This document shows, in pieces, positions 25,253-64,000 of a DNA stretch of 64,000 bases; within the stretch, counting starts at the first letter, position 1, and each line of letters opens with the position of its first letter. Position numbers and translations under genes: made by a program. Under the pieces are notes generated by a model. That model was not told the DNA's origin. It did not search any database and was given only the letters and a program-made list of their open reading frames with translations. The DNA lies in contig OY781093.1 of assembly GCA_963676355.1 (NCBI GenBank), forward strand, positions 1,463,010 to 1,527,009, read 5' to 3'. This DNA comes from Christensenellaceae bacterium. GTDB taxonomy: Bacteria; Bacillota; Clostridia; Christensenellales; UMGS416.

Positions 25253-25259
25253 TCTAATG

Positions 25260-25616: not shown

Positions 25617-25834
25617 AATACACTCCTATAAATAATTATTTCTTCATTGTTAATAACAAATACCACATATATTATATCATATATTTCAAATTTGATATAT
25701 ATAGAATCATATATATAACTAAAAGTTATTTACAAAATATATATAAACCAAGCAATATATATTCAAACATAAATATTTATTTTTTTTCAGTTTCGAGAAC
25801 TTTTTTTTCTTTTCAGAGCAAGTATTTGACTTTT
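25617..25834 (-). promoter_or_regulatory. pilA promoter/leader region
   Basis: This is an AT-rich 218-bp gap. An extended -10 (TGATATAAT) sits on the minus strand at 25669-25677. Two A8/T8 homopolymer tracts lie at 25780-25787 and 25801-25808. An AGGAG RBS precedes the pilA ATG. Confidence 0.5.
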
Positions 25835-27040: not shown

Positions 27041-27075
27041 TAAATGTCTCCTTCGCAGACTTAGATTGTTTTATT

Positions 27076-28134: not shown

Positions 28135-28157
28135 AATCCTCTTTAAGTTTAAATTTG

Positions 28158-41143: not shown

Positions 41144-41218
41144 TTGAAAATATTACAAAATGGGTATATATTAGACATATAACAAATCGACTCCCTTCCA
41201 TAGTGTTTTGGAGACGAA

Positions 41219-44459: not shown

Positions 44460-44462
44460 GAT

Positions 44463-50002: not shown

Positions 50003-51481
50003 TTAGTCTTCAAGTTTAACAACATTTGAAAATACACGATCAAACCTTGCAAGTATATCTTCCAACATTTCGTCTGTGAATGCAGCGGAAGTGTAGAGCC
50101 TGCTTCCTGCCAAGGTGATGATTCCCTCTGCCATGTAGGCTGCTCCCATGTGCTCCATTTCTTTTTTGCGCCTTGATGTTGCTTTAAGAACTTCGGGTAT
50201 CTTCCATGGCTTTTTCCAGTTTATTGAGTAGTGAACTGTTCCAACTGTTTCTAAGTGGCAAACTGAGCCTTGATTGAATGTAACAAAGGGAAGATTATAT
50301 TTATCGATAAGTTCCTGAAGGCCGGCAACAAGCTTGTCTGCAAACTGTCCTGCTTTTTGAGCAGCGTTTGTGCGCTCTATTTCGCAAAGTGTGTAGTAAC
50401 CGCCTGCGCAGCTTAGAGGATTTGCAGCCATTGTTCCGCCAACTAATGCCTTTTTGTGCTTTGGACCACCTGCTATGCCTGCAGATAAAAACTTCATGTA
50501 TTCTTTTTTGCCGCCAAGTCCACCTGCGCTTGGGTAGCCGCCTGCGACTGCTTTACCGAACACTGTAAGGTCAGGGGACACATCAAAATATCCCTGTGCA
50601 CCGGACATGCCGACTCTGAACCCTGTAACCACTTCATCAAAGATTAAAAGTGCACCGTATTTTTTGCACAAGGCTTCAACACCTTTGCAGAAGTCACGGC
50701 TTACAGGGCGTGTTCCGCTTTCAGGGCCAATCGGCTCTATAATAACGCCGGCTGTGCCGCCACGGAGCTTATTGCGTCTTAATTTTTTCTCCAAATCTTT
50801 TAAATCATTTGGGAAGAATTCTTGAGTGTGCTTAAACACAAATTTCGGAACGCCATGTGCTTGCATGTGCTTTGTTCCCGGAATTCTGATGCCGTAAGCA
50901 AGCTGGTCGCTCCAGCCATGATATGCACCGCCCATTTTTATGATGTTTTTCTTTTTGGTTGCAAGGCGCGCAACACGTATTGCAGCCATACACCCTTCTG
51001 TGCCTGAGCCTAACATGCGGAACATGTCAACTGATGGGAAATTGTCCACTATTTTTTTTGCAAGCTTATATTCATATTCATGGAAAAGACCGGTGGACGG
51101 ACCACAGTGATCTATAAGCTTCATTGTTTCTTCTTTGACTTCTTTTGGGTTGCTTCCCAATATTGTGGGTCCTCCGGCTTGAAGGAAGTCATAATACACA
51201 TTGCCATCAATGTCATAAAGGTATGCGCCTTCGGCCTTGTCTATAACAATGGGGAAGGGGTGGTTAAATGCAAGATTGTGCTGTACGCCACCTGGGATAT
51301 AGTTATTCGCCTGTGTTATCATTTCTTTTGACTTTAGACATTTCAGGTCAAAGTATTCATCTTCATATTCTTTAAGTTTTTCAGGTTTAATAGAATATAT
51401 GGGCTTTTGTATGAGCTCATCTAATTGTTTTGTGATCTTTTTATCATCTGGATATGTGCTTATTGAATAACTTTCTGACAT
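50003..51481 (-). CDS. class-III (GSA-aminomutase-like) PLP-dependent aminotransferase
   Basis: It has an AT-III fold with the PLP lysine in DLTVFGKAVAGGYP. It is the first gene of the operon and has an AAGGAG RBS. Confidence 0.85.
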   Translation of the reverse strand: MSESYSISTYPDDKKITKQLDELIQKPIYSIKPEKLKEYEDEYFDLKCLKSKEMITQANNYIPGGVQHNLAFNHPFPIVIDKAEGAYLYDIDGNVYYDFLQAGGPTILGSNPKEVKEETMKLIDHCGPSTGLFHEYEYKLAKKIVDNFPSVDMFRMLGSGTEGCMAAIRVARLATKKKNIIKMGGAYHGWSDQLAYGIRIPGTKHMQAHGVPKFVFKHTQEFFPNDLKDLEKKLRRNKLRGGTAGVIIEPIGPESGTRPVSRDFCKGVEALCKKYGALLIFDEVVTGFRVGMSGAQGYFDVSPDLTVFGKAVAGGYPSAGGLGGKKEYMKFLSAGIAGGPKHKKALVGGTMAANPLSCAGGYYTLCEIERTNAAQKAGQFADKLVAGLQELIDKYNLPFVTFNQGSVCHLETVGTVHYSINWKKPWKIPEVLKATSRRKKEMEHMGAAYMAEGIITLAGSRLYTSAAFTDEMLEDILARFDRVFSNVVKLED

Positions 51482-51517
51482 TGTGGTAATCTCCTTCTAA
51501 TTGTTATATAATGTGGA

Positions 51518-51533
51518 GAGTGAGCACTCACTC
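51518..51533. promoter_or_regulatory. 16-bp perfect palindrome, candidate TetR operator
   Basis: The sequence is GAGTGAG-ca-CTCACTC. It lies 37 nt upstream of the aminotransferase start, in the divergent TetR/aminotransferase intergenic region. Confidence 0.5.
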
Positions 51534-51667
51534 GCTTTTGATTATAGCAAGTATCCAGTGCGTTTTCAATAAGCAAATTAAATATTTTGCACGTAGATAT
51601 AAAAGACGCGTATGCAATCCTAAAATATGCTAAAATATAAAGCAGATAATATATATGGAGAAATCAT

Positions 51668-52324
51668 ATGGAATATAAATCATGTAAAAGCACATTTAAT
51701 AATATAGATGAAAATAAAAAGAAAAACATATTAGATGTTTCTATAAAAGAATTTTCAAGCTGTGGATTTAATAGCGCGAATATAAATGACATTGCACAAA
51801 AATCAGGTGTAAGTGTCGGCGCAATGTATAAGTACTTTGAAAATAAGCGCGCACTGTATCTTACGTGTGTTGAGTGGGCGATGTCTCATTTGAATGAAAA
51901 AATCAGCAAAGTGCTACAAGAATGCGATGACATTATAGAAATGTTTGAAAAGATAATAAGATTGATTCAAAACAACAGAAAAGAAAACGAACAGTTTACA
52001 AAGCTATATTATGAGATGGCAACAGAAAGCAATGCGGAATATGCAATGCTTATTTCAAGCCAAATAGAGGGAATTACCTCAAACTTATATGCAGCATATA
52101 TCGAAAAGGCTAAAAAAGACGGAAAAATAAGAAAAGATATCGATTCGAGGTATTTTGCTTTCTTTATTGATAACATATTAATGATGCTTCAGTTTTCATA
52201 CAGCTGTGAGTATTATAAGGATAGAATGAAGATATACACTTATGGCATCGCACTGGATGATGATGAAAAGTTAGTTGAGCAAATCATGCTGTTTATAAAA
52301 GGTGCATTGATGTGCGAACAATAA
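51668..52324 (+). CDS. TetR/AcrR-family transcriptional regulator
   Basis: It has an N-terminal HTH (DIAQKSGVSVGAMYKYFENK) and is divergent from the catabolic operon. Confidence 0.85.
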   Translation: MEYKSCKSTFNNIDENKKKNILDVSIKEFSSCGFNSANINDIAQKSGVSVGAMYKYFENKRALYLTCVEWAMSHLNEKISKVLQECDDIIEMFEKIIRLIQNNRKENEQFTKLYYEMATESNAEYAMLISSQIEGITSNLYAAYIEKAKKDGKIRKDIDSRYFAFFIDNILMMLQFSYSCEYYKDRMKIYTYGIALDDDEKLVEQIMLFIKGALMCEQ

Positions 52325-52328
52325 TCAG

Positions 52329-53582
52329 TTATACGATTAACCCGAACGAACCTAATTCATTTTTATAGAGTTCCTCTGTTGCAAGGGCTATCTTTGTTAC
52401 ACTGAAATTTTCACCTTCAGGATAGATATACAATGTATCATTTGAGGTGTTGATATCAACACAGTCGCCATACTTTCCAAGATAGTTGTATTCTATATGA
52501 CATGAATACGTGGATGCGACACTTGTTTTAATGTCATAGGGTGCATCATTATATACACCACTAAGGTGGAATCCATTCATATCATGGAAAAGCTTAGCTT
52601 TTCCCAAGTTAATAAACCGCTTTGCATTTGGAAGACTGTCTACACGCACATCGCACTTTAGCTTGTATGTCCCGCTTTTAACTTCAGCCTTCACATTTTC
52701 ACGTTCCCATTCATACCAATCAGGGATGTGTGCAAACTCCGTTGTTCCATCATCGCCAGATAGTCTGCTGTATACATCCATTGTCCAAGTTTTTTTGCAT
52801 GCTTTGCATTCGAGTTTGTTAAGGAGTGAAGACATTTTATATTCTGTTTTGCAATTAGGGCACTGATATAAAACTTTGTGCAAGCCTTCAGCTCTTTTGG
52901 GATAGTCTATTTTAATTTCATTGTCAACCTGCCATTTAAAGTCGTCATATTGAAATTCTTCTTTTATAGCTTGGTTTATATTCTCTGTGCTCGATTTTTT
53001 TACTTCATCTGCGGTAAAAAGACATTTCATGATGCTTTCGGTGCGATTGCCTCGCGGCGTAAGATTCCAGAAAGGGGAGTTTATGTGATGCCCATGATGG
53101 ATTATAGTTACAACAGGCACGTTAAAGAGCTTTGCAAGCTTACCCAGAGAATCGGGAAGAACAGCATTTGTGCCGCAAAGGCTGTATCTTGCCTCGGGAT
53201 ATATTACGGCAATATCTTTGTTATCTATCACTTTTTTTAGATGCCTTATGATAGTAAAATCCTTGGTGAATTTCCTTTTGCAAATGCAACCTACAGCGCG
53301 CAAGAGCCATTCTCTGCCTATGAAGCCGTCAATTGCGACGATGCTGTTTGTTCTGTATGGATGGGTAGCTTTTGTGACTACCTTAAAGTCGTGAAAAGCA
53401 TTGTGATTTACAAATAGAATATACGGTGGCTTAATGTCTTCCATATTAACTTTTGTGATTATAGACTTCTGTTTTTTAACAGCGGGGAAGGATAAAAGGC
53501 GTATCAAAAGCCGAAGCTTCTGCCTTTGCGGAGGCTTTTTCATGTCAAATCTTTTAAAGTCTTTTTGGGACATCTTTTTCAC
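52329..53582 (-). CDS. PlsC/LPLAT-family acyltransferase with C-terminal zinc ribbon (paralog of 459-1646)
   Basis: It has the HX4D motif (NHNAFHD), a PEG-like motif (YPEARYS) and CPNCK...CKACKK. Confidence 0.7.
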   Translation of the reverse strand: MKKMSQKDFKRFDMKKPPQRQKLRLLIRLLSFPAVKKQKSIITKVNMEDIKPPYILFVNHNAFHDFKVVTKATHPYRTNSIVAIDGFIGREWLLRAVGCICKRKFTKDFTIIRHLKKVIDNKDIAVIYPEARYSLCGTNAVLPDSLGKLAKLFNVPVVTIIHHGHHINSPFWNLTPRGNRTESIMKCLFTADEVKKSSTENINQAIKEEFQYDDFKWQVDNEIKIDYPKRAEGLHKVLYQCPNCKTEYKMSSLLNKLECKACKKTWTMDVYSRLSGDDGTTEFAHIPDWYEWERENVKAEVKSGTYKLKCDVRVDSLPNAKRFINLGKAKLFHDMNGFHLSGVYNDAPYDIKTSVASTYSCHIEYNYLGKYGDCVDINTSNDTLYIYPEGENFSVTKIALATEELYKNELGSFGLIV

Positions 53583-53759
53583 TCAATATACCTGCCTTTT
53601 TGTGTATCATTTTAAGTTACTTTATCAAGGTGAAAAAAGCAAATGATTTTTCCAATATGCTGTATTAGTAGATGCTTTTATAAGATAAGAGAGCAAATTT
53701 TAACACATGACAATTTTTTGTTTTACTTATTTTAAGTTTGCGTGTAAAATCAAACCCTA

Positions 53760-55169
53760 ATGAATAAGACGAACAGACAAAAAACTCGCTATATAAACCT
53801 TGCTTTGGGATTTGTTATTTTCATAGCATTTTTATTATTGCTTCCAAAAGATATTTTCTTATTTGAGGCAAGAGTCGCACTTGCGACACTCATATTAATG
53901 ATTTATTGGTGGATCACAAGGCCTGTGCACATAGCGGTTACGGCACTTTTGCCTATTATAGCTAATAGCTTGTTTGCAGTAGTCCCTATGGCTAATGTTC
54001 TTTCAAATTACGCTTCACAGATTGTGGTATTACTTTTGGGCGCAAACATTCTTACGCTTACATGGAAGACCACAGGGCTTGACAGACGCATTGCGCTCAA
54101 GTCACTTGGTGTGATTGGCACATCGATTAAAAAACAATTGATTGTGTGGTTTTTGCTGTCGGTTTTGCTGTCGGCTGTTCTCCCGAATGCGGTGGTGGCT
54201 GCGGCACTGTGTCCTATAGCATACGCTATGGTGGCCTATCTGGGAGATGATGGCGCAAAGCATAAAAAAATCCTTAACATGATCCTTCTTATGATAGTGT
54301 GGGGAGCGGGATTAGGAGGCTTTGGAACGCCATTGGGTGGAGCAATGAACCTTGTTGCAATTACGCACATCGAAAGCTTTACAGGGCAGGAATTCATGTT
54401 TATAAAGTGGACCTTGTTGATGCTTCCATATCTTGCGCTTTTATCACTTGCGATTGTAATATACATCATTTTTTCCAAGCAAGAAATAAAAACTTTGCCT
54501 GGCTCACATGATTATTTCATTAACAGCTATAAAGAGATGGGCAGGACAACAAAGTCACAAAAGATTGCTTTTATTCTGTTTTTAATACCGGTGGTGCTTT
54601 CTTTTGCGCGTCCTTTTTACTCAGCATATTTGCCGGAGTTTAAGCCTTTTTTCGCATTCTTACTGTTTGGATTTATAGCGCTTTTGGTAAACGGAGAAAA
54701 AGGCGAGAGGCTTATAACTTTTACTTATGCTCAAAAGCATATAAACTGGGGGCTTATGATTCTCTTTTCAGGAGGGCTTGCAATAGGCAATGTGCTGATT
54801 GCAACGGGAGTGTTGGAGAGCATATCAAAGCTTATAGCGACATCAGACATTGTAGGCGTATTGCCAATAATTCTTGTGATAGTTGCTTTTTCGATGTTTT
54901 TATCCAATACGTCAAGCAACACCGCGGCGGTTGCTGTCGCTGTGCCGCTTGTGATCGGTATAGTGTCGGTTATAAGCGATGTACCGCTTAAATATGTATA
55001 CTTAACGGCAGCCGCGTGCAATTGCGCATTCTTGCTGCCAACATCTATAAGGGCTATCCCGGTGGGATATGGACTGGACACAAAGTTTATGCTAAAGAAA
55101 GGAATGGCGGGGGTAATAATTACCTTCCTAGTTATAGCCATATATGGCTATATATCTGTTATAATATAG
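53760..55169 (+). CDS. DASS/SLC13-family anion:Na+ symporter
   Basis: It has about 12 TM helices and hairpins. The duplicated SNT signature reads FLSNTSSNTAAVAVAV, with the first-half counterpart GGFGTPLGGAMNLVAI. Confidence 0.75.
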   Translation: MNKTNRQKTRYINLALGFVIFIAFLLLLPKDIFLFEARVALATLILMIYWWITRPVHIAVTALLPIIANSLFAVVPMANVLSNYASQIVVLLLGANILTLTWKTTGLDRRIALKSLGVIGTSIKKQLIVWFLLSVLLSAVLPNAVVAAALCPIAYAMVAYLGDDGAKHKKILNMILLMIVWGAGLGGFGTPLGGAMNLVAITHIESFTGQEFMFIKWTLLMLPYLALLSLAIVIYIIFSKQEIKTLPGSHDYFINSYKEMGRTTKSQKIAFILFLIPVVLSFARPFYSAYLPEFKPFFAFLLFGFIALLVNGEKGERLITFTYAQKHINWGLMILFSGGLAIGNVLIATGVLESISKLIATSDIVGVLPIILVIVAFSMFLSNTSSNTAAVAVAVPLVIGIVSVISDVPLKYVYLTAAACNCAFLLPTSIRAIPVGYGLDTKFMLKKGMAGVIITFLVIAIYGYISVII

Positions 55170-55171
55170 TT

Positions 55172-55402
55172 ATGGAAAAAGATATTAAGATAATTGATTG
55201 CTTTGGGGATATATGCCCAATCCCAATCTTAAAGATAGAGCAGGAGCTTTCTCACATGAAAAGTGGGGATTCATTTATGATTGTGGTGGACCACAGTTGC
55301 ACGATTGAGGCAATCAGAAACAAATACTACGATAAAATACATGATGTGAAAATTGAGGAGGTTATGAACGGTGTGTGGGAGGTTGTTTTTACTATAAAGT
55401 AA
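55172..55402 (+). CDS. TusA-like sulfurtransferase (SirA/YedF/YeeD family)
   Basis: The 77-aa product starts MEKDIKIIDCFGDICPIPIL, with the CPxP active-site motif. It starts 2 nt after the DASS stop. The ORF-track extension back to 55016 overlaps the permease and is rejected. Confidence 0.8.
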   Translation: MEKDIKIIDCFGDICPIPILKIEQELSHMKSGDSFMIVVDHSCTIEAIRNKYYDKIHDVKIEEVMNGVWEVVFTIK

Positions 55403-55409
55403 TTTCGCT

Positions 55410-56306
55410 TCAGCAAAAACTTGCTTCGCCGTTTTCCTTAAACCATTCTAAAAATGTTTCCACATGTTCAGTGTGGAGCTTTTTGTATAACAAAAATATG
55501 TCTAAATTTATATCAAGGCCTGAGATTTTAACTTCCTTGAACTGCTTTTTGTATAGTTCCTCTTTGACTGAGATGTAGGGGAGAAACGCCATGCCGTAGC
55601 CACTGCTTATCATCATTTTGGCGCCGACAATTCCTTCAACGCGAAGGTTGCAGTTGAGATTGTTTCTGGGAATTCCCAAGTTTTCAAGCTTCTTAAAAAT
55701 GATTTCATTGATGTCTGTTTTGCCTGTGAGTGTGATAAGGCATATGTCTGCAAGCCCTTGAAGGGATATTGAATCTGGATGATCTGAGTTATTAGGGGCA
55801 GCCAGTATTATTTTGTTAAAACCCGCTCTTTGACACAAAACGCCATCATATCCGTTTGGAGTTTCCATATAGGAAAACCCGACATCACATATATTGTTTG
55901 CAACATTTTGAAGTATAACGTAGGAGGGATTGCTTGAAAGCTCATATTTATGCAATTGATATTTATTATTGGCTTTAATCATGGTGCAGGGAAGAGCATA
56001 GTCTGCAAGTGAAGAGGGAGCTTCTATCTTAATTATAATGTTTTTCTTTGATTCGCTTTCAATCTCTTCCATCATATGGTCATATGTTCGCAGGATGTTG
56101 TCTGCAAATTTATATACAATTTTTCCGTCAGGAGTAAGCTGTACGCCTTTATTTGAGCGAATAAGCAGCTTCTTTTTAAAATCTGTTTCAAGTCTTTGAA
56201 TTTGTTGGGACAGAGCGGATTGTGAAAGGTGCACACTTTTTGCGACAGAGCTAATATTGCCTGCCTTGGCTATCATATAAAAATATTTTAAAGATTCTAT
56301 ATTCAA
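55410..56306 (-). CDS. LysR-family transcriptional regulator
   Basis: It has the HTH (SVAKSVHLSQSALSQQIQRLE) and a substrate-binding domain. The likely TTG start at 56306 gives MNIESLKYF. The ORF-track start is at 56381. It is divergent from the yeeE operon. Confidence 0.8.
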   Translation of the reverse strand: MNIESLKYFYMIAKAGNISSVAKSVHLSQSALSQQIQRLETDFKKKLLIRSNKGVQLTPDGKIVYKFADNILRTYDHMMEEIESESKKNIIIKIEAPSSLADYALPCTMIKANNKYQLHKYELSSNPSYVILQNVANNICDVGFSYMETPNGYDGVLCQRAGFNKIILAAPNNSDHPDSISLQGLADICLITLTGKTDINEIIFKKLENLGIPRNNLNCNLRVEGIVGAKMMISSGYGMAFLPYISVKEELYKKQFKEVKISGLDINLDIFLLYKKLHTEHVETFLEWFKENGEASFC

Positions 56307-56439
56307 GATACACCCAAATTCATAGTCTCTGTTATGTTCGATATTAATGGATATTATAGCACCAAAGCCTGCTATTAACAAATCTAATACAGTATAAGAA
56401 AACAGATTGATAGATTTTTAACAAAGTATGATAAAATAT

Positions 56440-56470
56440 TGACGAACAAGTGTTAAATTATTAACAAACA
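56440..56470 (+). promoter_or_regulatory. promoter with a LysR-type inverted repeat upstream of the yeeE-tusA operon
   Basis: A TTGACG -35-like hexamer is followed by the palindrome TGTTAA-atta-TTAACA (56450-56465), which fits the T-N11-A LysR box. A GAGGTG RBS precedes the ATG at 56488. Confidence 0.5.
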
Positions 56471-56487
56471 ATCAAAGAGGTGTAAAC

Positions 56488-57195
56488 ATGTCAGAAAGCA
56501 CAATCAGAACTTCTTCCAGAGCTTCAAGCAGAAAACGCAAAAAAAGAATGAATCAGATACCCATAGCATTGGGACTTATTGTGATTATTGTTGTAATAGG
56601 TGTTCTATTGACTCTGAGAGGCGAGAACCTTGGACTATATTGGATGACGGGTTTGGCTTTTGGTTTTATCCTGCAGCGTGCACGTTTTTGCTTCACTGCA
56701 TCAATGCGCGATCCATACCTTACAGGTTCAACAACTGTAACGCGTGCAGTGCTTATAGCGTTTGCTATAACTTCAATCGCATTTACTGCAATTAAATACG
56801 GAGCGTTTTTAAAAGGGATGCCAATTCCAGGGCAGAGCTATGTAGCTCCGATATCAATTGCAACAGGCATAGGAGCATTTATGTTTGGTGTGGGAATGGT
56901 AATCGCCGGCGGATGTGCTTCGGGAACTTTGATGAGAATCGGAGAAGGCTTCTGGATGCAGCTTCTATCGCTTTTCTTCTTTGTGGTGGGCTCGCTTTGG
57001 GGAGCGCATGACTATGGATGGTGGTATCGCAACTTTATAGTAAGCGGCAAGAGAGTGTTCCTTCCGGATGTGTTTACAAAATTGTTTAACTCAACATCAT
57101 TTGGCTGGTTTGGCGGCCTTATGTGTAACCTTCTTATAATAGCAGTGATTTATGTGCTGGCGCATAAATGGGAAAATCGAAAAAAAGAGGATTAA
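56488..57195 (+). CDS. YeeE/YedE-family sulfur-compound transporter, N-terminal half-protein
   Basis: It has the conserved Cys motifs ILQRARFCFTAS and IAGGCASGT in re-entrant helices, and a basic N-terminal tail. Confidence 0.8.
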   Translation: MSESTIRTSSRASSRKRKKRMNQIPIALGLIVIIVVIGVLLTLRGENLGLYWMTGLAFGFILQRARFCFTASMRDPYLTGSTTVTRAVLIAFAITSIAFTAIKYGAFLKGMPIPGQSYVAPISIATGIGAFMFGVGMVIAGGCASGTLMRIGEGFWMQLLSLFFFVVGSLWGAHDYGWWYRNFIVSGKRVFLPDVFTKLFNSTSFGWFGGLMCNLLIIAVIYVLAHKWENRKKED

Positions 57196-57236
57196 AATTA
57201 TCCTTTTTAAAAATAACTTAATCGGAGGAAATTAAA

Positions 57237-57464
57237 ATGAGTAAAGAAGTAGTATTGGATTGCTTGGGCGAGGCTTGCCCTGTGCCACTTATCAAAGCAG
57301 AAAAAGAATTGGAAAAACTTGAATCAGGCGATGTTCTTATCGTTCAGATCGACCACAGCTGTGCAATGAAAAATGTTCCGGAATGGGCACGCAAAAAGGG
57401 ACATGAAGTGGAGCTTGAAGAAGTGGACGACGGCGAATGGGAATGCATCATAGAAAAAGCATAA
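57237..57464 (+). CDS. TusA-like sulfurtransferase (YeeD/TsuB-like)
   Basis: The 75-aa product starts LDCLGEACPVPLIKAEKEL, with the CPxP motif. It is inserted between the two YeeE halves. Confidence 0.85.
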   Translation: MSKEVVLDCLGEACPVPLIKAEKELEKLESGDVLIVQIDHSCAMKNVPEWARKKGHEVELEEVDDGEWECIIEKA

Positions 57465-57490
57465 CTAAAAGGTAATAAGACTTATTTGAG

Positions 57491-58048
57491 GTGAGAAACT
57501 TGAAGAAATTTTTTGACAAAATAAAACAGAATGAGTTCTACAAGATATGGTTTAAAAAAGCATTACCATATGTTGCAGGAGCAGTGCTTTTGTCAGTGTT
57601 CCAGATTGTGACTTTTACGACAACAGGCAATCCCTGGGGTGTTTCGGGTATATTTGCAAACTGGGGCGCATGGCTTTTTGAAGCTGTTGGCGGCTCGGTT
57701 GACAAATGGTTTTACTTTTCTTCACCCGGCGCGCAGGCAACTCTTGATGCAGGCTTTTTAAGCCATGCACCAACGTGGAGAAACATAGGGATAATATTTG
57801 GTGCGCTTTTTGCTGCACTTATGGCTTCAGGTTTCAAATTAAAGAAAATTAAGTCATTTAAGCAAGTTGCTGCTGCAACATTGGGCGGCCTTCTCATGGG
57901 ATATGGAGCAAGAATTGCATTTGGATGCAATATTGGCGCTCTGTTTTCAGGAATTGCTTCCTTGTCGCTTTCAGGCTGGGTATTTGCCCTGTTCATGTTT
58001 GGCGGCGCTGTGGTCGGCAGCAAACTTTTAGTTAAATACTTTATGTAA
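57491..58048 (+). CDS. YeeE/YedE-family transporter, C-terminal half-protein
   Basis: It has the third conserved Cys motif GARIAFGCNIGALFSG and 4-5 TM segments. Confidence 0.8.
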   Translation: MRNLKKFFDKIKQNEFYKIWFKKALPYVAGAVLLSVFQIVTFTTTGNPWGVSGIFANWGAWLFEAVGGSVDKWFYFSSPGAQATLDAGFLSHAPTWRNIGIIFGALFAALMASGFKLKKIKSFKQVAAATLGGLLMGYGARIAFGCNIGALFSGIASLSLSGWVFALFMFGGAVVGSKLLVKYFM

Positions 58049-58059
58049 AGGACTTTATT

Positions 58060-59292
58060 ATGGCTAGAGAAAAAAAAGTAGAACAATATGATGTCGTTAT
58101 TGTCGGCGGAGGAGCTTCAGGGCTTACAGCCGGAATATACTGCGGAAGAGCTAAACTTAAAACACTTATAGTTGAGCAGGCTTTGGTGGGCGGCATTGCA
58201 ACTAATACAAATGACATTGAAAATTATCCGGGATTTCCGGAAGGAATATCAGGAATTGACCTTATGAACCTTTTTAAAGAGCAGGCAAAAAGATTCGGAG
58301 TGAAATTCAAGCTCACAAATGTGAAAACTGTGGATTTTTCAGGCGATATAAAAATCCTTGAAACATTCAGAAACAGATATGAAGCAAAATCTGTGATAAT
58401 CGCAAATGGATCAAAGCCAAGGGTTTTGGGCATTGACAGCGAAGAACAGTTCATTGGAAAAGGAATCGCTTTTTGCGCCACATGCGACGCAGCTGCAAAT
58501 ACGGGCAAAGAAGTTGTTGTTATAGGCTCAGGCGATGCGGCAATAGAAGAAGGAATGTTCCTTACTAAGTTTGCCAGCAAAGTTACAGTTTCCGTGCTTC
58601 ATGATGAAGGCGTTATGGACTGCAACGAGATTGCAAAAGCGGCAGCTCTTGCAAACCCTAAGATGGAATTTAAGTGGAATACAGTGGTTGATGAATATAT
58701 CGGCGGCGAAGAGCTTGAAGCTGTAAACCTAAAAAATCTTAAAACAGGCGAAATAGAGCGTATAGACTGCGCCACATGCTTCTTATTTATAGGATTTGTG
58801 CCGAACACAAATATATACAAGGACATAGTTAAAATGACTGACCGCGGATATGTTATAACTGATGAGGAAATGCGCACTAATATTCCGGGCGTGTTTGCAG
58901 CAGGCGATGTTCGCGACAGATTCCTAAGACAGGTTGCAACTTGTGTAGGTGACGCGGCTACAGCAGGTGTTATGGCTGAAAAGTATATCGCAGAAAGCGA
59001 AATATTTGAACATCAGATCATGATGGGCGACGGCATTGCATATGTATATGACGCGGTAAACAAAGACCAAAGAGAGTTTTTGTCTGTCATTGAAGAGATA
59101 GAAGCACTTTATGAAAACCATGGTTGTCATAAGGTGGACACATATAAATCAAAAGGCTTGGCAGCGCGCCTAGGATGTGAAGACTGCCCGGCTGTTGTCA
59201 TCATAAAAGACGGCAAAATATATGAGACGTTGTCTGAAGATGAGCTCAGCAAAGAAGAAATCATTGCTGCCATAAAAGCTTCAAAGGAGTAA
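58060..59292 (+). CDS. thioredoxin-disulfide-reductase-like flavoprotein fused to a C-terminal thioredoxin-fold (monothiol) domain
   Basis: It has the FAD site GGGASGLTAG, the CATC redox disulfide and the NAD(P) site VIGSGDAA. A ~95-aa C-terminal extension has Trx-like beta-alpha topology (HGCHKVD...CPAVVIIKDGKIYE) but no CxxC. Confidence 0.75.
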   Translation: MAREKKVEQYDVVIVGGGASGLTAGIYCGRAKLKTLIVEQALVGGIATNTNDIENYPGFPEGISGIDLMNLFKEQAKRFGVKFKLTNVKTVDFSGDIKILETFRNRYEAKSVIIANGSKPRVLGIDSEEQFIGKGIAFCATCDAAANTGKEVVVIGSGDAAIEEGMFLTKFASKVTVSVLHDEGVMDCNEIAKAAALANPKMEFKWNTVVDEYIGGEELEAVNLKNLKTGEIERIDCATCFLFIGFVPNTNIYKDIVKMTDRGYVITDEEMRTNIPGVFAAGDVRDRFLRQVATCVGDAATAGVMAEKYIAESEIFEHQIMMGDGIAYVYDAVNKDQREFLSVIEEIEALYENHGCHKVDTYKSKGLAARLGCEDCPAVVIIKDGKIYETLSEDELSKEEIIAAIKASKE

Positions 59293-59296
59293 TATC

Positions 59297-60190
59297 GTGA
59301 AAAAGAGAATGCTAATAATCCTTATCGCATTAATAATTGTTTCGTTTTCAGCTTGCGCAAATTTTGACTTTGCACAAACGGGTGATTACATCGTTACACC
59401 CAAACAAGCTGAGGCACTCATTAATGACGGTGTGACTGTTGTTGATGTGCGAAGTGCCGAAGACTATGGCTTAGGCCATGTCGCAGGGGCTGTAAACATA
59501 CCAATGAGCACACTTACAGTTAGTGAGCCATATGCAAACATGCTTCCTGATGCGGCTCAAGTGGAAGAAGTTATGAGTGCGGCAGGCATATCGCAAACTG
59601 ATGAACTTTTGGTTTATGATGATGCAAAAAACATGCAAGCAGCCCGCGTGCAGTGGACGCTCAACATGTATTCAAACTTCAATGTGCGTGTGATAAGCGG
59701 TGGGGTTAAAGCACTCAAAGAGCAGGGAGTTGATTTCGATTCTAACAGCGTAGAGCTTGAAACAGTTGAATATAGCGCTGGTGATTATCAGAAGTCATTA
59801 ATTGTTAATCTTGACTATTTGAAATCCGTCATTAACATGCCGGATGAAAACACTGTGATTATAGACACCCGCAGCGATGATGAATATTATGCTGGGACGA
59901 TTCCCAGCGCATGCCACATAGAATATGTTTGGAATATGTATGCAAACGGTGAGTACAAAACACCGCGCGACATACAAAGCACATATCTGGCAGAGGGCAT
60001 AAAGCCCGAAATGAAAATTATCCTGTTTTGCAAAACATCAGTAAGAGCTGCCCAAACATATGCAGCACTTAAAGATGCAGGATATGAAGATGTAAGGATA
60101 TATGACGGTGCTTGGTTGGAATATGAGGATGTTGAAAATCCTCAGCCACCGTCGGAAAATATCACACCCACGAGGCAAGACGCTTCGTAA
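59297..60190 (+). CDS. lipoprotein thiosulfate/3-mercaptopyruvate sulfurtransferase-type tandem rhodanese
   Basis: It has a lipobox (VSFSAC). The N-terminal domain is an inactive rhodanese and the C-terminal domain carries the catalytic loop CKTSVRA. The GTG start is behind an AGGAG RBS and overlaps the trxR-like stop. Confidence 0.8.
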   Translation: MKKRMLIILIALIIVSFSACANFDFAQTGDYIVTPKQAEALINDGVTVVDVRSAEDYGLGHVAGAVNIPMSTLTVSEPYANMLPDAAQVEEVMSAAGISQTDELLVYDDAKNMQAARVQWTLNMYSNFNVRVISGGVKALKEQGVDFDSNSVELETVEYSAGDYQKSLIVNLDYLKSVINMPDENTVIIDTRSDDEYYAGTIPSACHIEYVWNMYANGEYKTPRDIQSTYLAEGIKPEMKIILFCKTSVRAAQTYAALKDAGYEDVRIYDGAWLEYEDVENPQPPSENITPTRQDAS

Positions 60191-60205
60191 CAGAAAGGAA
60201 TAAGA

Positions 60206-61786
60206 ATGAAAAAATTATTAGTAATCCTTATGGCTGCAATCATGGTTTTCGCCGTGACAGCATGCTCAGGAGGAAACGCACTTGAAAGCGCAGCCAATGA
60301 CTATTTTGCGCAATATCCAGGCAGTCGCATAATAACTTGGGACGACCTTTTCGCTAAAATTGACGCAGGAGATGAACCTTTCATCCTAAGCATTCGTCAA
60401 AGCGACGTTTACAATGAAGGTCATATCGTTGGTGCATATCTTGCATCTTGGGGAACGGATTTGGCAGAAAAAGTTTCAATGCTTCCTAAAGACGAACCTG
60501 TTTATGTATATTGCTATTCAGGACAGACAGCAGGACAGACAGTTGCACTTATGAATATCCTAGGAATCGAAGCTTATTCAGTAAAATCAGGCTATAACTT
60601 GGGCGCCTCAAAAACAGAAGGCTTTGAAGCTTATGTTGAAACAGAAGCAAATGAGCTTCCTGATGCAGGCGCAAAATTTGATAAAGCAGTTTTGGAATTT
60701 GCACAAGAATATTTCAACACTGTAGCTGATAATTCTAACAACATCATGGCAGCAAGTGCCGCCGCTCCATTGATTGAAGCTGGTGACCTTACTGTTATGG
60801 ATATCCGCAAAGCAGACGACTACAATGCAGGCCACATCGAAGGCGCAGTAAACGTACCTTTCGGCGAAGGCATGCAGGAAAAATTTGCAGACTTTGAAGG
60901 CAAAAAAATCATCGTTGCTTGCTATTCAGGACAAACAGCAGGACAGACAGTTGGCGTGCTTCGTGCACTTGGCTATGACGCTATATCACTTAAAAGCGGC
61001 ATGGGCGGCTGGACAAGCTATGTGAAAACTGCTGCCGCAGATGCATATTTTGCACCTGAGTTTGCAAACCCAATGATTTCATGGGAAGCACTTTTTGAGA
61101 AAATGGACGCAGGCGAAGAGCTTAACATAGTTTCTATCCGTCAGCAGGACGTATATGACGAAGGTCACATCAAAGGCGCAGTTCTTGCTTCTTGGGGTGC
61201 AGACCTCGCTGAAAAAGTTTCAATGCTTCCTACAGACGAGCCTGTTTATGTATATTGCTATTCAGGACAGACAGCAGGACAGGCAACAGCACTTATGCGC
61301 ATGCTTGGAATTGAAGCATACTCTGTTAAGTCAGGATACAATGTAGGCGCTACAGCAGTTGAAGGCTATGAAGCTTATACTGAAACAGCAGCAAATGAAA
61401 TAGCTGATGCAGGCGCAAGCTTTGATGCAGTTCTTTTAAAAGAAGTTGAATCATATTTCACAGCAGTAACTGACAATGCAAACTTCAAAATCGGCTGGGA
61501 TGACGCTCAGGCAGCAGTTGATGCCGGAGAAGCAACAGTTATTGATATTCGTAAAGCAGATGACTTTGCAGCAGGACATATCGTAAACGCTATAAACATA
61601 CCTTTCGGCGAAAGCATGGACTTTAGCGAATTGCCAGAAGGCAAATTAATCGTAGCTTGCTATACAGGACAGACAGCAGGACAGACAACAGCAGTTCTTC
61701 GTATGCTTGGTCATGACGCAGTATCTCTTCACTTTGGCATGACTGCCGGTTGGATTAAAGAAGGATATCCGGTAGTAACTGACTAG
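60206..61786 (+). CDS. lipoprotein with four rhodanese domains, each with a catalytic Cys loop (CYSGQTAGQ / CYTGQTAGQ)
   Basis: It has a lipobox (AVTAC|SGG). The four repeats each have the VY(V/A)CYSGQTAGQT loop. Domain pairs 1-2 and 3-4 are near-identical. Confidence 0.8.
   Translation: MKKLLVILMAAIMVFAVTACSGGNALESAANDYFAQYPGSRIITWDDLFAKIDAGDEPFILSIRQSDVYNEGHIVGAYLASWGTDLAEKVSMLPKDEPVYVYCYSGQTAGQTVALMNILGIEAYSVKSGYNLGASKTEGFEAYVETEANELPDAGAKFDKAVLEFAQEYFNTVADNSNNIMAASAAAPLIEAGDLTVMDIRKADDYNAGHIEGAVNVPFGEGMQEKFADFEGKKIIVACYSGQTAGQTVGVLRALGYDAISLKSGMGGWTSYVKTAAADAYFAPEFANPMISWEALFEKMDAGEELNIVSIRQQDVYDEGHIKGAVLASWGADLAEKVSMLPTDEPVYVYCYSGQTAGQATALMRMLGIEAYSVKSGYNVGATAVEGYEAYTETAANEIADAGASFDAVLLKEVESYFTAVTDNANFKIGWDDAQAAVDAGEATVIDIRKADDFAAGHIVNAINIPFGESMDFSELPEGKLIVACYTGQTAGQTTAVLRMLGHDAVSLHFGMTAGWIKEGYPVVTD
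60380..61760 (+). repeat. intragenic tandem duplication (~744-bp period) inside the tetra-rhodanese gene
   Basis: For example, 60470-60545 (aaagtttcaatgcttcc...cctgtttatgtatattgctattcaggacagacagcaggacag) recurs at 61214-61289 with few substitutions. The ggacagacagcaggacagac core occurs four times. Confidence 0.75.
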
Positions 61787-61844
61787 TAGCTGATTTGATA
61801 TTGGAGCAAACGCTCTTTATCAATAAGTATTAAAAAGACTAAAT

Positions 61845-61881
61845 GACCCCTTCGGCATATGACCGTCGGGGTCTTTTGTTT
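61845..61881 (+). terminator. rho-independent terminator after the rhodanese operon
   Basis: The sequence is gacccc-ttcggcatatgaccgtc-ggggtc followed by ttttgttt. Confidence 0.65.
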
Positions 61882-61987
61882 GAAGAGCTTTTTAGGAAAG
61901 TTTTTAACTAAATTTTGGCTAATCGCTATGATTGTTTCAGGGTATGGTTTATTATTAATTGATACCAGATGATTAAAAGGACAAATA

Positions 61988-62605
61988 ATGGACAATACAA
62001 AAGTGCAGCTCAAAAAATATTATGATAAGTATGCCAATGACAGAAACATGAGCCAAAAGCATCAATGGAAGATAGACTTACGTGACACATTCCTTAAAGA
62101 AATGAAAAAGGAAGGTTGTCGTGAATTGCTGGAGGTCGGAGTCGGTACTGGTCAGGATAGCTTGGTTTTTATGGAAAACGGGCTCAATGTTAAAGCTATT
62201 GATTTGTCTCAGGAGCATGTGAGGATATGCAAAACCAAAGGCATTGAGGCTCATGTGATGGACATGATGGATATGTCTTTTGAAGATAGTTGTTTTGACT
62301 GCATTTATACCCTAAACTGCCTTTTGCACATACCAAAAAATTCTCTATCCAAAGCGTTTAACGAGTTTTCGCGAGTACTAAAATCAGGCGGATATATGTT
62401 TATCTGTCAATATGGAAATAAGGAAGAAGACGATGAAGGTATAAAGAATTTTGATGGCAAAGGTGAGCGGTTTTTTGCGTTTAGAACTGTTGAATCGTTT
62501 CTTGAGATAGTTAATGAGACGGGAATAAAGGTTATAAAATCCGGTGTATTGGATGTCGGCTTTGACACATCAGAAGTGCAATATTTTATATTGAAAAAAA
62601 GTTGA
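61988..62605 (+). CDS. class I SAM-dependent methyltransferase
   Basis: It has SAM motif I (LEVGVGTGQDS) and post-I acidic motif II (KAIDLS). Confidence 0.8.
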   Translation: MDNTKVQLKKYYDKYANDRNMSQKHQWKIDLRDTFLKEMKKEGCRELLEVGVGTGQDSLVFMENGLNVKAIDLSQEHVRICKTKGIEAHVMDMMDMSFEDSCFDCIYTLNCLLHIPKNSLSKAFNEFSRVLKSGGYMFICQYGNKEEDDEGIKNFDGKGERFFAFRTVESFLEIVNETGIKVIKSGVLDVGFDTSEVQYFILKKS

Positions 62606-62612
62606 AATTATA

Positions 62613-64000
62613 ATGAAGTTTATGAATAAAGAAAAGAAAAACTATACTTTTATTATTGGATTAGCCGTCTATTTTATAGCAGGTCTTTTGTTTCTTCAAA
62701 AATTTCCATTCATGCACTCGGATGAGTCGTGGCTTTCAGGACTTACTCGCACCATGATGCATAGCGGACTGGACTCCACAGAGACTTTTTTTGACCTGCT
62801 CCCTCGATATCCACATGCGATAAAAACACTGTTTCATCTCGTTCAGATGCCGTTTATTCTTATATTCGGATACAATCTGTTTGCGGTGCGGCTTGTATCA
62901 TTGATTTTTTCGTGTGCGGCAATTTATATTATTTATAAAATTGCATATAGCTTTTCACAATCTAAAAATTTTTCAGATATTGCAGCAGTTGCTGTGGCAT
63001 TTGATGTGCAGTTTAAATATGCCTCGCATTTTGCACGGCAGGAGATAATAATTGCTTTTGGGATGCTTTTGGCAATATATTATATTTATAAAAGTATCGC
63101 TTCATGGTCGCTTAAAAACGATGTTATCGCAGGCGCTATAGTAGGGCTAATGATAGGCATTCATCCCAATTCATTCATAGCCGCGCTTTCCGTGGGAAGC
63201 ATTTATTTATATTACATAATTGTAGATAAGAAGATTACGTTTAAGAACCTCTTTACATTAATAGGTGTGGTTTCCTTGTTTGCCGCAATATTTGTTGGGG
63301 TGAGCTATATTTTTGATGGGCAGTTTATTTCTCACTATTTAAAGTATGGAGACCATCTTGGGGTTACACAGACATTTGGGGAGAAAGTACAGTCAATAGT
63401 GCCTTTTTATCAAAAGCTGTGGATGGGGATATCGGGAACATACTACACTCCTTGGATAAAAATACAGCTTGTGCTATTTGGTGTGACAATTATAGGCGCA
63501 GCTATATATGCGCACTGGAATAAGCAGGTTTTGCTTTTTATATTCCCAATTATTGCAGTAAATGTTGGATATATAGTAATCGGGCGATACTCACAGCCTT
63601 CGATACTTCTAATGTTTATAGTATGTTGGATGCTTGTTATATTCCTTTTAAGCCGTATAAAGAAATTTAAAACCGTAGTATCAGCTATACTTGCTTTTGC
63701 AATGCTAGTGTCGTCTGCGATGCAAATTTCACCTTACATAAATGATGATTATAAGCAGTATTTAAAGAGTATAAACGATAGCGTTCCGCAAGATGCAAGG
63801 GTGCTTGCGAATCTAAATGCTGAGTACGCTTTTTCATATGATAGGCTATATGATTATAGAAACTTGGGATATCTGGACGACAATGAGCTGAGTTTCAAAG
63901 ACTATGTGAAATCAAACCACATTGAGTATATAATATATCCTGAAGAGATGGATTATATCTATGAAAGCAGGCCCGTCTGGAACATAGTATATGGCAATAT
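62613..64000 (+). CDS. GT-C-fold membrane glycosyltransferase (ArnT/PMT/GT39-like), N-terminal ~460 aa; the gene continues past the window end
   Basis: The frame is open from the ATG at 62613 to the window end. It has many TM helices and the first-loop acidic motif (HSDESW) typical of GT-C lipid-linked-sugar transferases. It is missing from the ORF track because no stop falls in the window. Confidence 0.55.
   Translation, partial: MKFMNKEKKNYTFIIGLAVYFIAGLLFLQKFPFMHSDESWLSGLTRTMMHSGLDSTETFFDLLPRYPHAIKTLFHLVQMPFILIFGYNLFAVRLVSLIFSCAAIYIIYKIAYSFSQSKNFSDIAAVAVAFDVQFKYASHFARQEIIIAFGMLLAIYYIYKSIASWSLKNDVIAGAIVGLMIGIHPNSFIAALSVGSIYLYYIIVDKKITFKNLFTLIGVVSLFAAIFVGVSYIFDGQFISHYLKYGDHLGVTQTFGEKVQSIVPFYQKLWMGISGTYYTPWIKIQLVLFGVTIIGAAIYAHWNKQVLLFIFPIIAVNVGYIVIGRYSQPSILLMFIVCWMLVIFLLSRIKKFKTVVSAILAFAMLVSSAMQISPYINDDYKQYLKSINDSVPQDARVLANLNAEYAFSYDRLYDYRNLGYLDDNELSFKDYVKSNHIEYIIYPEEMDYIYESRPVWNIVYGN

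Follow-up and report, generated by a model that had tools for sequence, protein, structure and literature searches.

Organization of the locus

We analyzed a window of 64,000 nt from contig OY781093.1 of a Christensenellaceae bacterium, all coordinates below being those of this whole stretch, and describe near its 3' end a gene cluster that joins a YeeE-type importer split into two polypeptides, small TusA-family carriers, a flavoprotein related to thioredoxin reductase (TrxR) and a pair of rhodanese proteins. The cluster is real and conserved widely in anaerobic bacteria. As an initial annotation of this DNA had supposed of the combination, no published account of the cluster was found in our literature searches, and it is apparently uncharacterised. 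None of its proteins is covered by a curated family model in NCBIfam.

All nine genes of the sulfur gene set that the initial annotation had placed at 53760-61881 were recovered in the open reading frame (ORF) map and in the Pfam and NCBIfam profile scans of the window ORFs, and the DASS, TusA, PF04143, Pyr_redox_2 and rhodanese domains were all matched. On the plus strand, a DASS/CitMHS-type anion permease of 469 aa (53760-55169; CitMHS 132.6 bits, Na_sulph_symp 117.2 bits) is followed, after a gap confirmed to be 2 nt, by TusA1 (55172-55402, 76 aa; PF01206 47.3 bits). A LysR-type regulator of 298 aa (55410-56306, minus strand; HTH_1 and LysR_substrate domains) is convergent with TusA1 and, as annotated, divergent from the yeeE operon. 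This operon opens with YeeEa, the N half of YeeE (56488-57195, plus strand, 235 aa; PF04143 positions 1-154, 100.7 bits), and continues on the same strand with TusA2 (57237-57464, 75 aa; PF01206 86.4 bits), YeeEb, the C half of YeeE (57491-58048, 185 aa; PF04143 positions 163-310, 118.9 bits), the TrxR-like flavoprotein (58060-59292, 410 aa; Pyr_redox_2 158 bits), the two-domain rhodanese Rhd2 (59297-60190; two stretches of PF00581) and the four-domain rhodanese Rhd4 (60206-61786; four stretches of PF00581).

The intergenic gaps from yeeEa to rhd4 measure 41, 26, 11, 4 and 15 nt. Directly 3' of rhd4, pattern matching found a hairpin followed by a T-run (61850-61881, plus strand), which is the top-ranked terminator-like site in 53400-64000 and the probable end of the yeeEa-rhd4 transcription unit. 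The cluster does not stop at 61881, where its limit had been set: the genes for an accessory S-adenosylmethionine-dependent methyltransferase of 205 aa (61988-62605, plus strand; Methyltransf_11/25) and for an ArnT/GT39-like GT-C membrane glycosyltransferase (from 62613, plus strand, cut at 64000 by the end of the window; 510 aa at full length) come next. Upstream of 53760 lie genes with no relation to the cluster, for sugar transport and catabolism, a TetR regulator and an acyltransferase; the remaining genes of the window are unrelated as well.

Conservation of the core

Relatives were gathered through the large and strongly conserved family of reductases with a thioredoxin (Trx)-like domain to which the window flavoprotein belongs. 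One genome per species was scanned, which gave at least 504 encoding stretches, and the best 80 of these were compared with flanks of up to 10 kb per side; related loci are labelled L001 to L087. Their ORFs were searched with the nine window proteins, and the leftover ORFs were clustered and representatives annotated. Counts are also given for the 45 of the 80 loci that span at least 20 kb.

The core order TusA1> <LysR YeeEa> TusA2 (one to three copies)> YeeEb> TrxR-like>, where arrowheads give the direction of transcription, was kept in essentially every related locus. YeeEb was present in 80/80 loci, TusA2 in 77/80, YeeEa in 76/80 (the shortfall lying at short contigs), LysR in 63/80 and TusA1 in 59/80; among the 45 longer loci the corresponding numbers were 45, 45, 45, 44 and 42. 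The DASS permease, with a score of 159.5 on TIGR00785 against a cut-off of 198.6, is an accessory gene restricted to the closest relatives (12/80 loci), where it usually lies directly upstream of TusA1. The picture of two TusA-coupled importers drawn in the initial annotation did not hold, TusA1 being part of the core and the permease not.

The closest related locus, L001, comes from a Christensenellaceae metagenome-assembled genome (MAG) and is 94% identical; the conserved gene order beyond position 64000, outside the window, was inferred from it. Clostridial carriers include Hungatella, Lacrimispora, Clostridium, Fusibacter, Wukongibacter, Oscillospiraceae, Peptostreptococcaceae, Halanaerobiales and others, and the core was also found in Anaerolineales/Flexilinea (Anaerolineae), Spirochaetes, Erysipelotrichaceae, Mariniplasma and Mollicutes-like MAGs. 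Among the carriers are the culturable Wukongibacter sp. M2B1, Hungatella effluvii DSM 24995, Clostridium sediminicola, Fusibacter ferrireducens and Lacrimispora algidixylanolytica. Beyond the modules named in this text, no further gene family was common to more than six of the 80 loci within 10 kb on either side.

When L004, L013 and L019 are set against the window, the reductases are 72-80% identical between Christensenellaceae MAGs and MAGs labelled Erysipelotrichaceae and Anaerolineales, with the same gene order, which suggests either horizontal transfer of the whole cluster or mis-binned or mislabelled MAGs.

The split channel and the TusA proteins

YeeEa aligns to residues 7-129 of YeeE from Spirochaeta thermophila (StYeeE), including the motifs QRxRxCF and AGGCASG, and YeeEb to residues 217-319, including GGCNIG. 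All three functional cysteines of StYeeE, on whose conservation the YeeE assignment had been made to depend, are aligned: C22 and C91 with C68 and C143 of YeeEa, and C293 with C146 of YeeEb. In place of the single YeeE/TsuA polypeptide of ~330-350 aa there are two genes, for 235 + 185 aa, and the TusA gene reported between the halves was confirmed at 57237-57464. The split as such is not new, being known from PmpAB/YedE1E2 and from archaeal YedE. The two-gene channel would most likely transport thiosulfate or zero-valent sulfur.

Both TusA proteins carry three cysteines. Those of TusA1 are C10, C15 (in CPxP) and C43 (in DHSC), with CPxP kept in 59/59 and DHSC in 55/59 of its orthologues; in 59/80 loci the gene adjoins that of LysR. 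The three cysteines of TusA2 (C9, C14 and C42) are near-invariant, and the pattern DC.G..CP.P...DHSC was found in 97/99 orthologues. We take this three-cysteine pattern to be unlike those of E. coli TusA, YeeD and YedF. The number of tandem TusA2 copies per related locus varies from one to three; duplication in tandem, into two or three near-identical copies, was seen in L022 (three copies), L004, L013, L019-L021, L024, L029, L035, L045, L046, L054, L060, L064, L066, L068, L072 and L077.

The TrxR-like flavoprotein

The closest entry in the PDB to the flavoprotein is the D. radiodurans TrxR 2q7v (307 bits). Its redox centre is CATC, at C139/C142, and CATCD is invariant in 22 family members. 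The motif HRRxxxR, which marks the site for the 2'-phosphate of NADPH and reads HRRDTLR in 2q7v, aligns to HDEGVMD in the window protein; by this alignment the reductase has lost the NADPH 2'-phosphate site. The enzyme is of the TrxR class, has no rhodanese domain by Pfam and does not belong with Npsr/CoADR-RHD.

The C-terminal domain (residues 325-409) has the predicted topology beta-alpha-beta-alpha-beta-beta-alpha, with a predicted local distance difference test (pLDDT) value of ~90 in the full-length model. Modelled alone with AlphaFold2 it reached a pLDDT of 85.9, and Foldseek returned dozens of thioredoxins (TM 0.78-0.86, root mean square deviation 1.6-2.2 Å, probability 1.00); as modelled, the domain is a thioredoxin fold. 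PF00085 matched it over profile positions 39-102 only, with a score of 19.3 against a cut-off of 23.5. Among the 22 family members, D360, K363, S364, G366, R370, the cis-Pro P377, I382 and G385 are invariant, and no cysteine is conserved at the Trx active-site position. The likeness to NTRC (PDB 7p9d), in which a low-Mr TrxR and a C-terminal thioredoxin fold also share one chain, is limited accordingly: the window protein reads DAVNKDQ in place of WCGPCK, and the NADPH-binding arginines are lost. Without redox cysteines in its Trx domain, the protein cannot be counted among TrxR-Trx redox fusions like NTRC. From the initial annotation the extra Trx-fold domain therefore stands, by the model, and the redox fusion does not. 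A CEDC before the cis-Pro was considered as a redox-active motif and rejected, as it occurs only in the closest relatives.

A search of 1.84 billion proteins with the C-terminal domain matched 42 representatives, mostly short fragments, and the domain is found almost only in the reductase fusion, to which it is private. In L020, a second triple of TusA, TusA and TrxR-like genes (18066-19961 of that locus) lies beside ABC genes and without YeeE; the reductase in it, of 414 aa, matches that of the window with 473 bits, and the triple is a paralogous carrier-reductase pair.

The rhodanese lipoproteins

Rhd2 and Rhd4 are predicted extracytoplasmic lipoproteins. Their lipoboxes, FSAC in Rhd2 and VTAC in Rhd4, both end at C20 and, like those kept in almost all orthologues of the two proteins, were recognized by pattern. 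A catalytic Cys loop is present in five of the six rhodanese domains. The N domain of Rhd2 is inactive and its C domain active, with C245 in CKTSVRA; the catalytic cysteines of Rhd4 are C103, C239, C351 and C485, in CY[ST]GQTA loops. The loops are kept across orthologues, the Rhd2 type being CK[TS][SG][VI]R. These data bear out the description of two lipid-anchored rhodaneses with 2 + 4 domains and five catalytic loops.

The halves of Rhd4 are 62% identical as protein and 72% identical as DNA, and outside the closest relatives the orthologues mostly have two domains. On these comparisons Rhd4 is a lineage-specific tandem duplication of a two-domain unit; the tetra-rhodanese lipoprotein highlighted in the initial annotation is present, as a local duplication of a two-domain protein. 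Several Rhd4 orthologues have a Thr/Ser/Asp/Ala-rich linker after the lipid-anchor cysteine, which the window protein does not have.

The regulator and its intergenic region

The HTH profile of the LysR-type regulator fits only with the TTG at 56306 as start codon. In the intergenic region between the regulator and yeeEa, the palindrome that had been noticed at 56440-56470 is real: TGTTAA-ATTA-TTAACA lies at 56451-56466, 37 nt upstream of yeeEa. With at most two mismatches, TGTTAA-N4-TTAACA occurs in 42 of 61 LysR-yeeEa intergenic regions (3.4 expected), and it is perfect in 10 of them, namely the window and nine close relatives. A second dyad, TTATAC-N-GTATAA, was found with the same tolerance in 38/61 regions, against 3.1 expected from shuffles, and lies near -100 in many loci; in the window it reads TAATACAGTATAA (56385-56397, ~-103 from the yeeEa start), with one mismatch to the consensus. 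The T-N11-A form of this dyad is typical of LysR boxes. The site at 56385-56397 thus looks more LysR-like than the palindrome and is a candidate binding site.

Linked glycosylation and ABC modules

The core is part of a wider cluster counting about 18 genes. Families recurring around it are the ArnT/GT39-like GT-C transferase (~510 aa); a DegT-type aminotransferase nearest to dTDP-4-amino-4,6-dideoxyhexose transaminases (328 bits against a cut-off of 375); a family 2 glycosyltransferase (GT2) of 245 aa nearest to ArnC and PgfS; an ATP-grasp ligase with an L-amino-acid-ligase C-terminal domain; in some loci RmlA and RmlB; and an ATP-binding cassette (ABC) importer whose binding protein is of the SsuA/NMT1 family and whose subunits score best on the SaoA/SaoP models. 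Of the 45 longer loci, 36 carry at least one sugar gene and 31 the ArnT-like gene, and nine have the core without any sugar gene. The ArnT-like ORF of the window is 100% identical to a 510-aa protein (P0121) with a PF13231 PMT_2 domain, homologues of which are named ArnT family or GT39 by NCBI. The DegT, GT2 and GT-C proteins are encoded together in L001, L081, L083, L085 and L086, and the window shows only the GT-C gene before its end.

Two gene orders are prominent. The window type reads core, Rhd2, Rhd4, (methyltransferase), ArnT-like, DegT, GT2, ATP-grasp, RmlB, the later genes being taken from L001, and the common clostridial order reads <Rhd <Rhd ArnT-like> <ABC (three genes) <ATP-grasp <GT2 <DegT (<RmlA <RmlB) TusA1> <LysR core>. 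The methyltransferase between Rhd4 and the ArnT-like gene (61988-62605) has a counterpart only in L001 and shows weak similarity of the TehB (tellurite), MduS and ArsM types.

In six contexts anchored on ArnT-like homologues (Wukongibacter, an uncultured 2.7-Mb contig, Halothermotrichaceae, Clostridium sp., Dehalobacterium and Clostridiisalibacter) rhodanese genes directly adjoin the ArnT-like gene in 6/6 cases. In most loci carrying both, the rhodanese pair stands beside the ArnT-like gene, the pair lying downstream, upstream or divergent of the core. The linkage survives rearrangement, which argues for a functional connection; no known system explains this adjacency.

The GT2 and ATP-grasp genes are fused in 11 loci, encoding one protein of 658-707 aa, a Rosetta-stone link which shows that both work in one sugar pathway. 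The fusion loci are probably those with a single ATP-grasp entry, such as L025, L028, L030, L031, L052, L058, L069 and L073. The presence of RmlA and RmlB at some loci points to a dTDP-4-amino-4,6-dideoxyhexose as the probable sugar; on the dTDP-glucose 4,6-dehydratase model the RmlB-like gene scores above the cut-off (418.8 against 365.1). A thiosugar or sulfoquinovose pathway was considered and rejected, the same gene reaching only 46.5 against 575 on the UDP-sulfoquinovose synthase model.

GT39 enzymes glycosylate proteins, including lipoproteins, from polyprenyl-phosphate sugars, as established for actinobacterial Pmt. As these enzymes act on lipoproteins and linkers are present in several Rhd4 orthologues, it is a reasonable guess by analogy that the ArnT-like transferase may glycosylate the rhodanese lipoproteins. 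Taken as a whole, the ArnT-like, GT2, aminotransferase and ATP-grasp module most likely puts an N-acylated 4-amino-6-deoxyhexose on these lipoproteins or on the wall.

A persulfide reductase module in the same position

In L084 (Halothermotrichaceae) and L087 (Clostridiisalibacter) the rhodanese and ArnT-like genes are joined not to the split-YeeE/TusA/TrxR genes but to full-length YeeE (one or two genes, 422-436 aa) and a flavoprotein of 565 aa that has a C-terminal rhodanese domain. This flavoprotein matches B. anthracis CoADR-RHD (3icr, 483 bits), Shewanella Npsr (3nta, 436 bits) and the E. faecalis coenzyme A (CoA)-persulfide reductase (8a56, 416 bits). L085 (Clostridium sp.) has both the split-YeeE/TusA/TrxR-like and the full-length-YeeE/persulfide-reductase modules. 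A known type of persulfide-reducing enzyme can therefore stand, with YeeE, where the window has its module, and nothing points more strongly to a role of the TrxR-like protein in reducing imported sulfane sulfur. The replacement module lies at L084:4612-7689, L085:4187-7208 and L087:1316-5767, often with a second NMT1-type ABC system.

Proposed function

With a confidence somewhat above even, we interpret the cluster as a LysR-controlled system that would take up extracellular sulfane sulfur, whether thiosulfate, polysulfide or zero-valent sulfur, and process it reductively. The two lipid-anchored rhodaneses on the outer face would load sulfane sulfur on their catalytic cysteines, and where it comes from thiosulfate the sulfite would stay outside. 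The sulfur would then cross the two-polypeptide YeeE channel, in which all three pore cysteines known from the structure of the thiosulfate transporter are retained, to be accepted inside by the three-cysteine TusA2; this protein may resolve the persulfide to an internal disulfide with release of H2S. Regeneration of TusA, again with release of H2S, would fall to the TrxR-like flavoprotein, using NADH or another donor, and the Trx-fold domain without CxxC is probably a TusA-docking module rather than a redox carrier. The sulfide could serve assimilation (cysteine synthesis), the disposal of fermentation electrons, or both. TusA1, and in the window lineage the DASS permease, may be accessory entry or exit routes.

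Several published observations are in keeping with such a route. Thiosulfate moves through YeeE by way of three cysteines and is passed at the cytoplasmic exit to YeeD, which becomes persulfidated or thiosulfonated; H2S was obtained in vitro only with added thiol reductant, and the cellular acceptor is still sought (PMC11073785). Two-gene YeeE-type transporters import zero-valent sulfur, pulled by its cytoplasmic consumption (PMC10812762; PMC11582611). When Thermotoga maritima is given thiosulfate, expression of yeeE rises 42-fold and a cytoplasmic NAD(P)H polysulfide/thiosulfate reductase is co-induced (PMC9431562), and in fermentative Halanaerobium rhodaneses rise with thiosulfate (PMC5497025).

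A number of results weigh against this interpretation. The channel halves miss the TsuA equivalog cut-offs (73.3 and 55.9 against 400 on NF052577; 59.5 and 29.1 against 645 on NF041049), TusA2 falls below all curated ones (TsuB 49.5/147.5, TusA 29.9/78, YedF models 45.2/110 and 42.9/79), and the flavoprotein misses the TrxB equivalog TIGR01292 (321.6 against 343.45). For the regulator and for both YeeE halves the best-scoring models are selenium-related, as detailed below. Linked genes for a sulfite reductase, cysK or asr were found neither in the 80 loci nor in the window, so that the fate of sulfite and sulfide is left unexplained. The model also leaves unexplained the glycosylation and ABC modules, linked as they are in 36/45 of the longer loci. 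Co-transcription from yeeEa to rhd4 is inferred from the short gaps and the pattern-matched terminator, and a promoter scan gave 35 sites against 29.4 expected, no better than background. The route from capture through import to reduction put forward in the initial annotation is thus partly supported: comparative evidence, namely the linkage and the replacement module, speaks for it, but the glycosylation and ABC modules had been missed and selenium had not been weighed.

Alternative explanations

A broader form of the proposal would make the whole ~18-gene cluster a single trans-envelope sulfur relay dependent on a dedicated surface glycan, which we regard as rather unlikely. The ArnT-like transferase would link a lipid-carried 4-amino-6-deoxyhexose, acylated by the ATP-grasp enzyme, to the rhodanese lipoproteins or the wall, and this glycan would create a site that binds or activates anionic or particulate sulfur (thiosulfate, polysulfide, S8). 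Cys-to-Cys transfer would then run from rhodanese through split YeeE to the three-cysteine TusA, from which the private TrxR-like reductase would discharge H2S. If this were true, the cluster would supply the missing physiological reductant and acceptor of the YeeE/YeeD pathway and would stand for a widespread, so far unrecognised way in which fermentative anaerobes reduce thiosulfate/S0.

The main rival to sulfane sulfur uptake is acquisition or detoxification of selenium (or tellurium): selenite reduction would be the task of the surface rhodaneses and the TrxR-like enzyme, and selenium would enter through a YedE/YedF-like channel-carrier pair controlled by a regulator like LysR_Se. The best NCBIfam model for the regulator is indeed the selenium-metabolism-associated NF040786 (138.2 bits, the next best reaching 80), and the YeeE halves score 99.4 and 97.1 bits on selen_YedE_FdhT (NF033796), against 73 and 56 on TsuA. 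TusA2 matches YedF models, Rhd2 gives a weak match on the ExtH model, the ABC subunits are best on SaoA/SaoP and the methyltransferase is weakly similar to MduS and TehB. In archaea YedE is split into two genes, and YedE, YedF and LysR_Se have been linked to SelD (PMC5322559). All those scores are, however, far under their cut-offs (138 against 250, 99 against 350, 45 against 110), and selD, selA, selB and other selenium genes are absent from the 64-kb window and do not recur in the flanks, up to 10 kb, of the 80 loci. The substitute module of L084, L085 and L087 has a protein of the persulfide-reductase family, the ABC binding protein is of the SsuA sulfonate family, and five catalytic rhodanese domains with up to three TusA copies would suggest a flux well above the need for a trace element. 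We therefore consider a selenium function unlikely.

Homeostasis or detoxification of reactive sulfur species (RSS) would involve the same mechanism as the sulfur uptake we favour and differ in physiological purpose only, toxic polysulfides and persulfides being removed from the surface and the cytoplasm of anaerobes in sulfidic habitats, as by cst/CoAPR systems, with neither sulfur supply nor an electron sink. The substituting flavoprotein belongs to a family that includes the E. faecalis CoA-persulfide reductase, an RSS-response enzyme; two-gene YeeE transporters have been linked to sulfur detoxification operons (PMC10812762), and the carriers are sediment and gut anaerobes. Against this, the regulator is of the LysR type and not a persulfide sensor of the CstR, SqrR or BigR type, the co-located SsuA-type importer fits scavenging better, and importing a toxin would be less economical than excluding it. 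A purely protective role is in our view distinctly unlikely.

It is also conceivable, at a quite low probability, that the sulfur genes serve the sugar genes, TusA and the TrxR-like enzyme supplying activated sulfur to the making of a surface glycan or small molecule that contains sulfur. TusA proteins are known to donate sulfur in biosyntheses, TusA1 stands at the sugar-operon junction in the type-B arrangement, and both the linkage of sugar genes to the core in several gene orders (36/45 longer loci) and the 11 GT2-ATP-grasp fusions would fit. The nine longer loci that hold the core without sugar genes do not, nor does L087, which has ArnT-like, rhodanese, YeeE and persulfide reductase genes with no aminotransferase, GT2 or ATP-grasp gene nearby. 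The aminotransferase (328 bits against 375) resembles an ordinary dTDP-4-amino-4,6-dideoxyhexose transaminase, the cluster has no conserved enzyme for C-S bond formation (radical SAM, ThiG/BexX-like or cysteine desulfurase), and extracytoplasmic rhodaneses would have no obvious role in a cytoplasmic biosynthesis.

Chance juxtaposition of a housekeeping thioredoxin reductase, generic rhodaneses and a transporter, to be entertained only in that every domain family here is common and individually unspecific, is effectively refuted by the conserved neighbourhood, the core linkage being invariant in 80 loci from several phyla and surviving rearrangement, the reductase being a distinct family with a private C-terminal domain, and the intergenic gaps being 4-41 nt.

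Relation to known systems

The kinds of protein found here are known, these being a YeeE-type importer, a TusA carrier, rhodaneses and a flavoprotein disulfide reductase, and the overall logic has precedents. The novelty lies in their constant association: a reductase of the TrxR class that carries a private Trx-fold domain, a three-cysteine TusA inside a split YeeE, paired surface rhodaneses and a link to Arn-like glycosylation.

The nearest counterpart of the importer is TsuA/TsuB (YeeE/YeeD) of E. coli and Spirochaeta thermophila (PDB 6leo, 8j4c; PMC11073785), with which it shares the PF04143 channel, the same three pore cysteines and a small CPxP partner of the TusA family expected to take the sulfur at the cytoplasmic exit. 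In the window, by contrast, the channel consists of two polypeptides with the TusA gene between them, the TusA protein has three conserved cysteines and not one or two, the scores lie far under the TsuA/TsuB equivalog cut-offs, and a dedicated flavoprotein reductase and surface rhodaneses are added that TsuAB does not have. The study of YeeE/YeeD left the cellular sulfur or electron partner of YeeD open (PMC11073785), and the TrxR-like enzyme, always accompanied by YeeEb in the 80 loci, is a testable candidate for it.

PmpAB of Serratia and YedE1E2 of Cupriavidus, a zero-valent sulfur importer (PMC11582611, PMC10812762), likewise consist of an N-half-like and a C-half-like protein, have a link to sulfane sulfur and couple uptake to a cytoplasmic consumer. 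PmpA and PmpB are, however, of ~130 aa with four helices and one cysteine each, whereas the window halves are larger and keep all three cysteines and the central region of full-length YeeE; and the consumer in those systems is an O2-dependent persulfide dioxygenase, here a reductase suited to anaerobes. With YedE/YedF/LysR_Se (PMC5322559), split in archaea as regards YedE, the cluster has in common a YeeE-superfamily membrane protein, a TusA-like CPxP protein and a LysR regulator, and these are the nearest curated models for the three proteins; the window scores are well under the cut-offs, its TusA proteins lack the second YedF domain, and no linkage to selD was seen in the 80 loci.

As to reduction, Npsr, CoADR-RHD and CoA-persulfide reductase (3nta, 3icr, 8a56) and the Thermotoga NSR with yeeE (PMC9431562) are also cytoplasmic flavoprotein disulfide reductases that convert imported sulfane sulfur or thiosulfate to H2S. 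The CoADR class has a single cysteine, whereas the window enzyme is of the low-Mr TrxR class with a CATC dithiol; it has no rhodanese domain and would presumably act on a persulfide or disulfide of a protein (TusA), not on CoA persulfide.

Exported rhodaneses that pass sulfane sulfur (or selenium) to a membrane system are represented by E. coli PspE, Wolinella Sud and Geobacter ExtH. Those of the cluster differ in being lipoproteins of mostly monoderm anaerobes, encoded beside an ArnT-like glycosyltransferase, and in being always paired, one an MST-like tandem protein and the other with two to four GlpE-like active domains. The sugar module recalls the Arn pathway (ArnB/ArnC/ArnT), Pgf of S. 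mutans and Pmt/Ppm1 of actinobacteria in its DegT aminotransferase, lipid-carrier-loading GT2 and external GT-C (GT39/ArnT-like) enzyme. It differs from the Arn pathway in having an ATP-grasp (L-amino-acid-ligase-like) enzyme in place of the ArnA formyltransferase, and the sugar is probably a different one (see above). No precedent was found for Arn-like glycosylation linked to sulfur genes. The tie between rhodanese lipoproteins and an ArnT/GT39-type transferase with an amino-sugar pathway is unexpected and hints that surface glycosylation plays a part in how sulfur is acquired.

Fermentative Clostridia, Halanaerobiales, Spirochaetes and Anaerolineae make sulfide from thiosulfate or sulfur without classical respiratory reductases, and only 'rhodaneses' have been implicated (PMC5497025). 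A unit for surface capture, import and reduction could be that route to sulfide, which bears on gut H2S, sulfur cycling in sediments, and souring and corrosion.

Other features of the window

A permissive Rfam scan of 51000-64000 revealed no riboswitch or leader RNA, its matches being a chance-level one to a small RNA (E 0.94) and one to CRISPR-DR6 (53542-53571, minus strand). The latter, at 25.3 bits against a gathering threshold of 39 (E 0.12), lies within the 5' end of the acyltransferase ORF, is accompanied by no repeat array and is most likely due to chance.

Further upstream, a type IV pilus cluster occupies 16495-29846 on the minus strand and encodes PilN, PilM, a pilin with an N-methylation motif, a prepilin peptidase, PilC, PilT and PilB; it holds two large ORFs without a Pfam match, at 18939-20867 (642 aa) and 20928-23009 (693 aa). 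Other ORFs without a Pfam match at E <= 1e-5 are those at 34828-37599 (minus strand, 923 aa), 32715-33407 (minus strand, 230 aa) and 33796-34785 (plus strand, 329 aa). A cellulose-synthase-like GT2 protein with a C-terminal PilZ domain, resembling BcsA, is encoded at 41208-43112 and is followed by a two-component system at 43779-45806.

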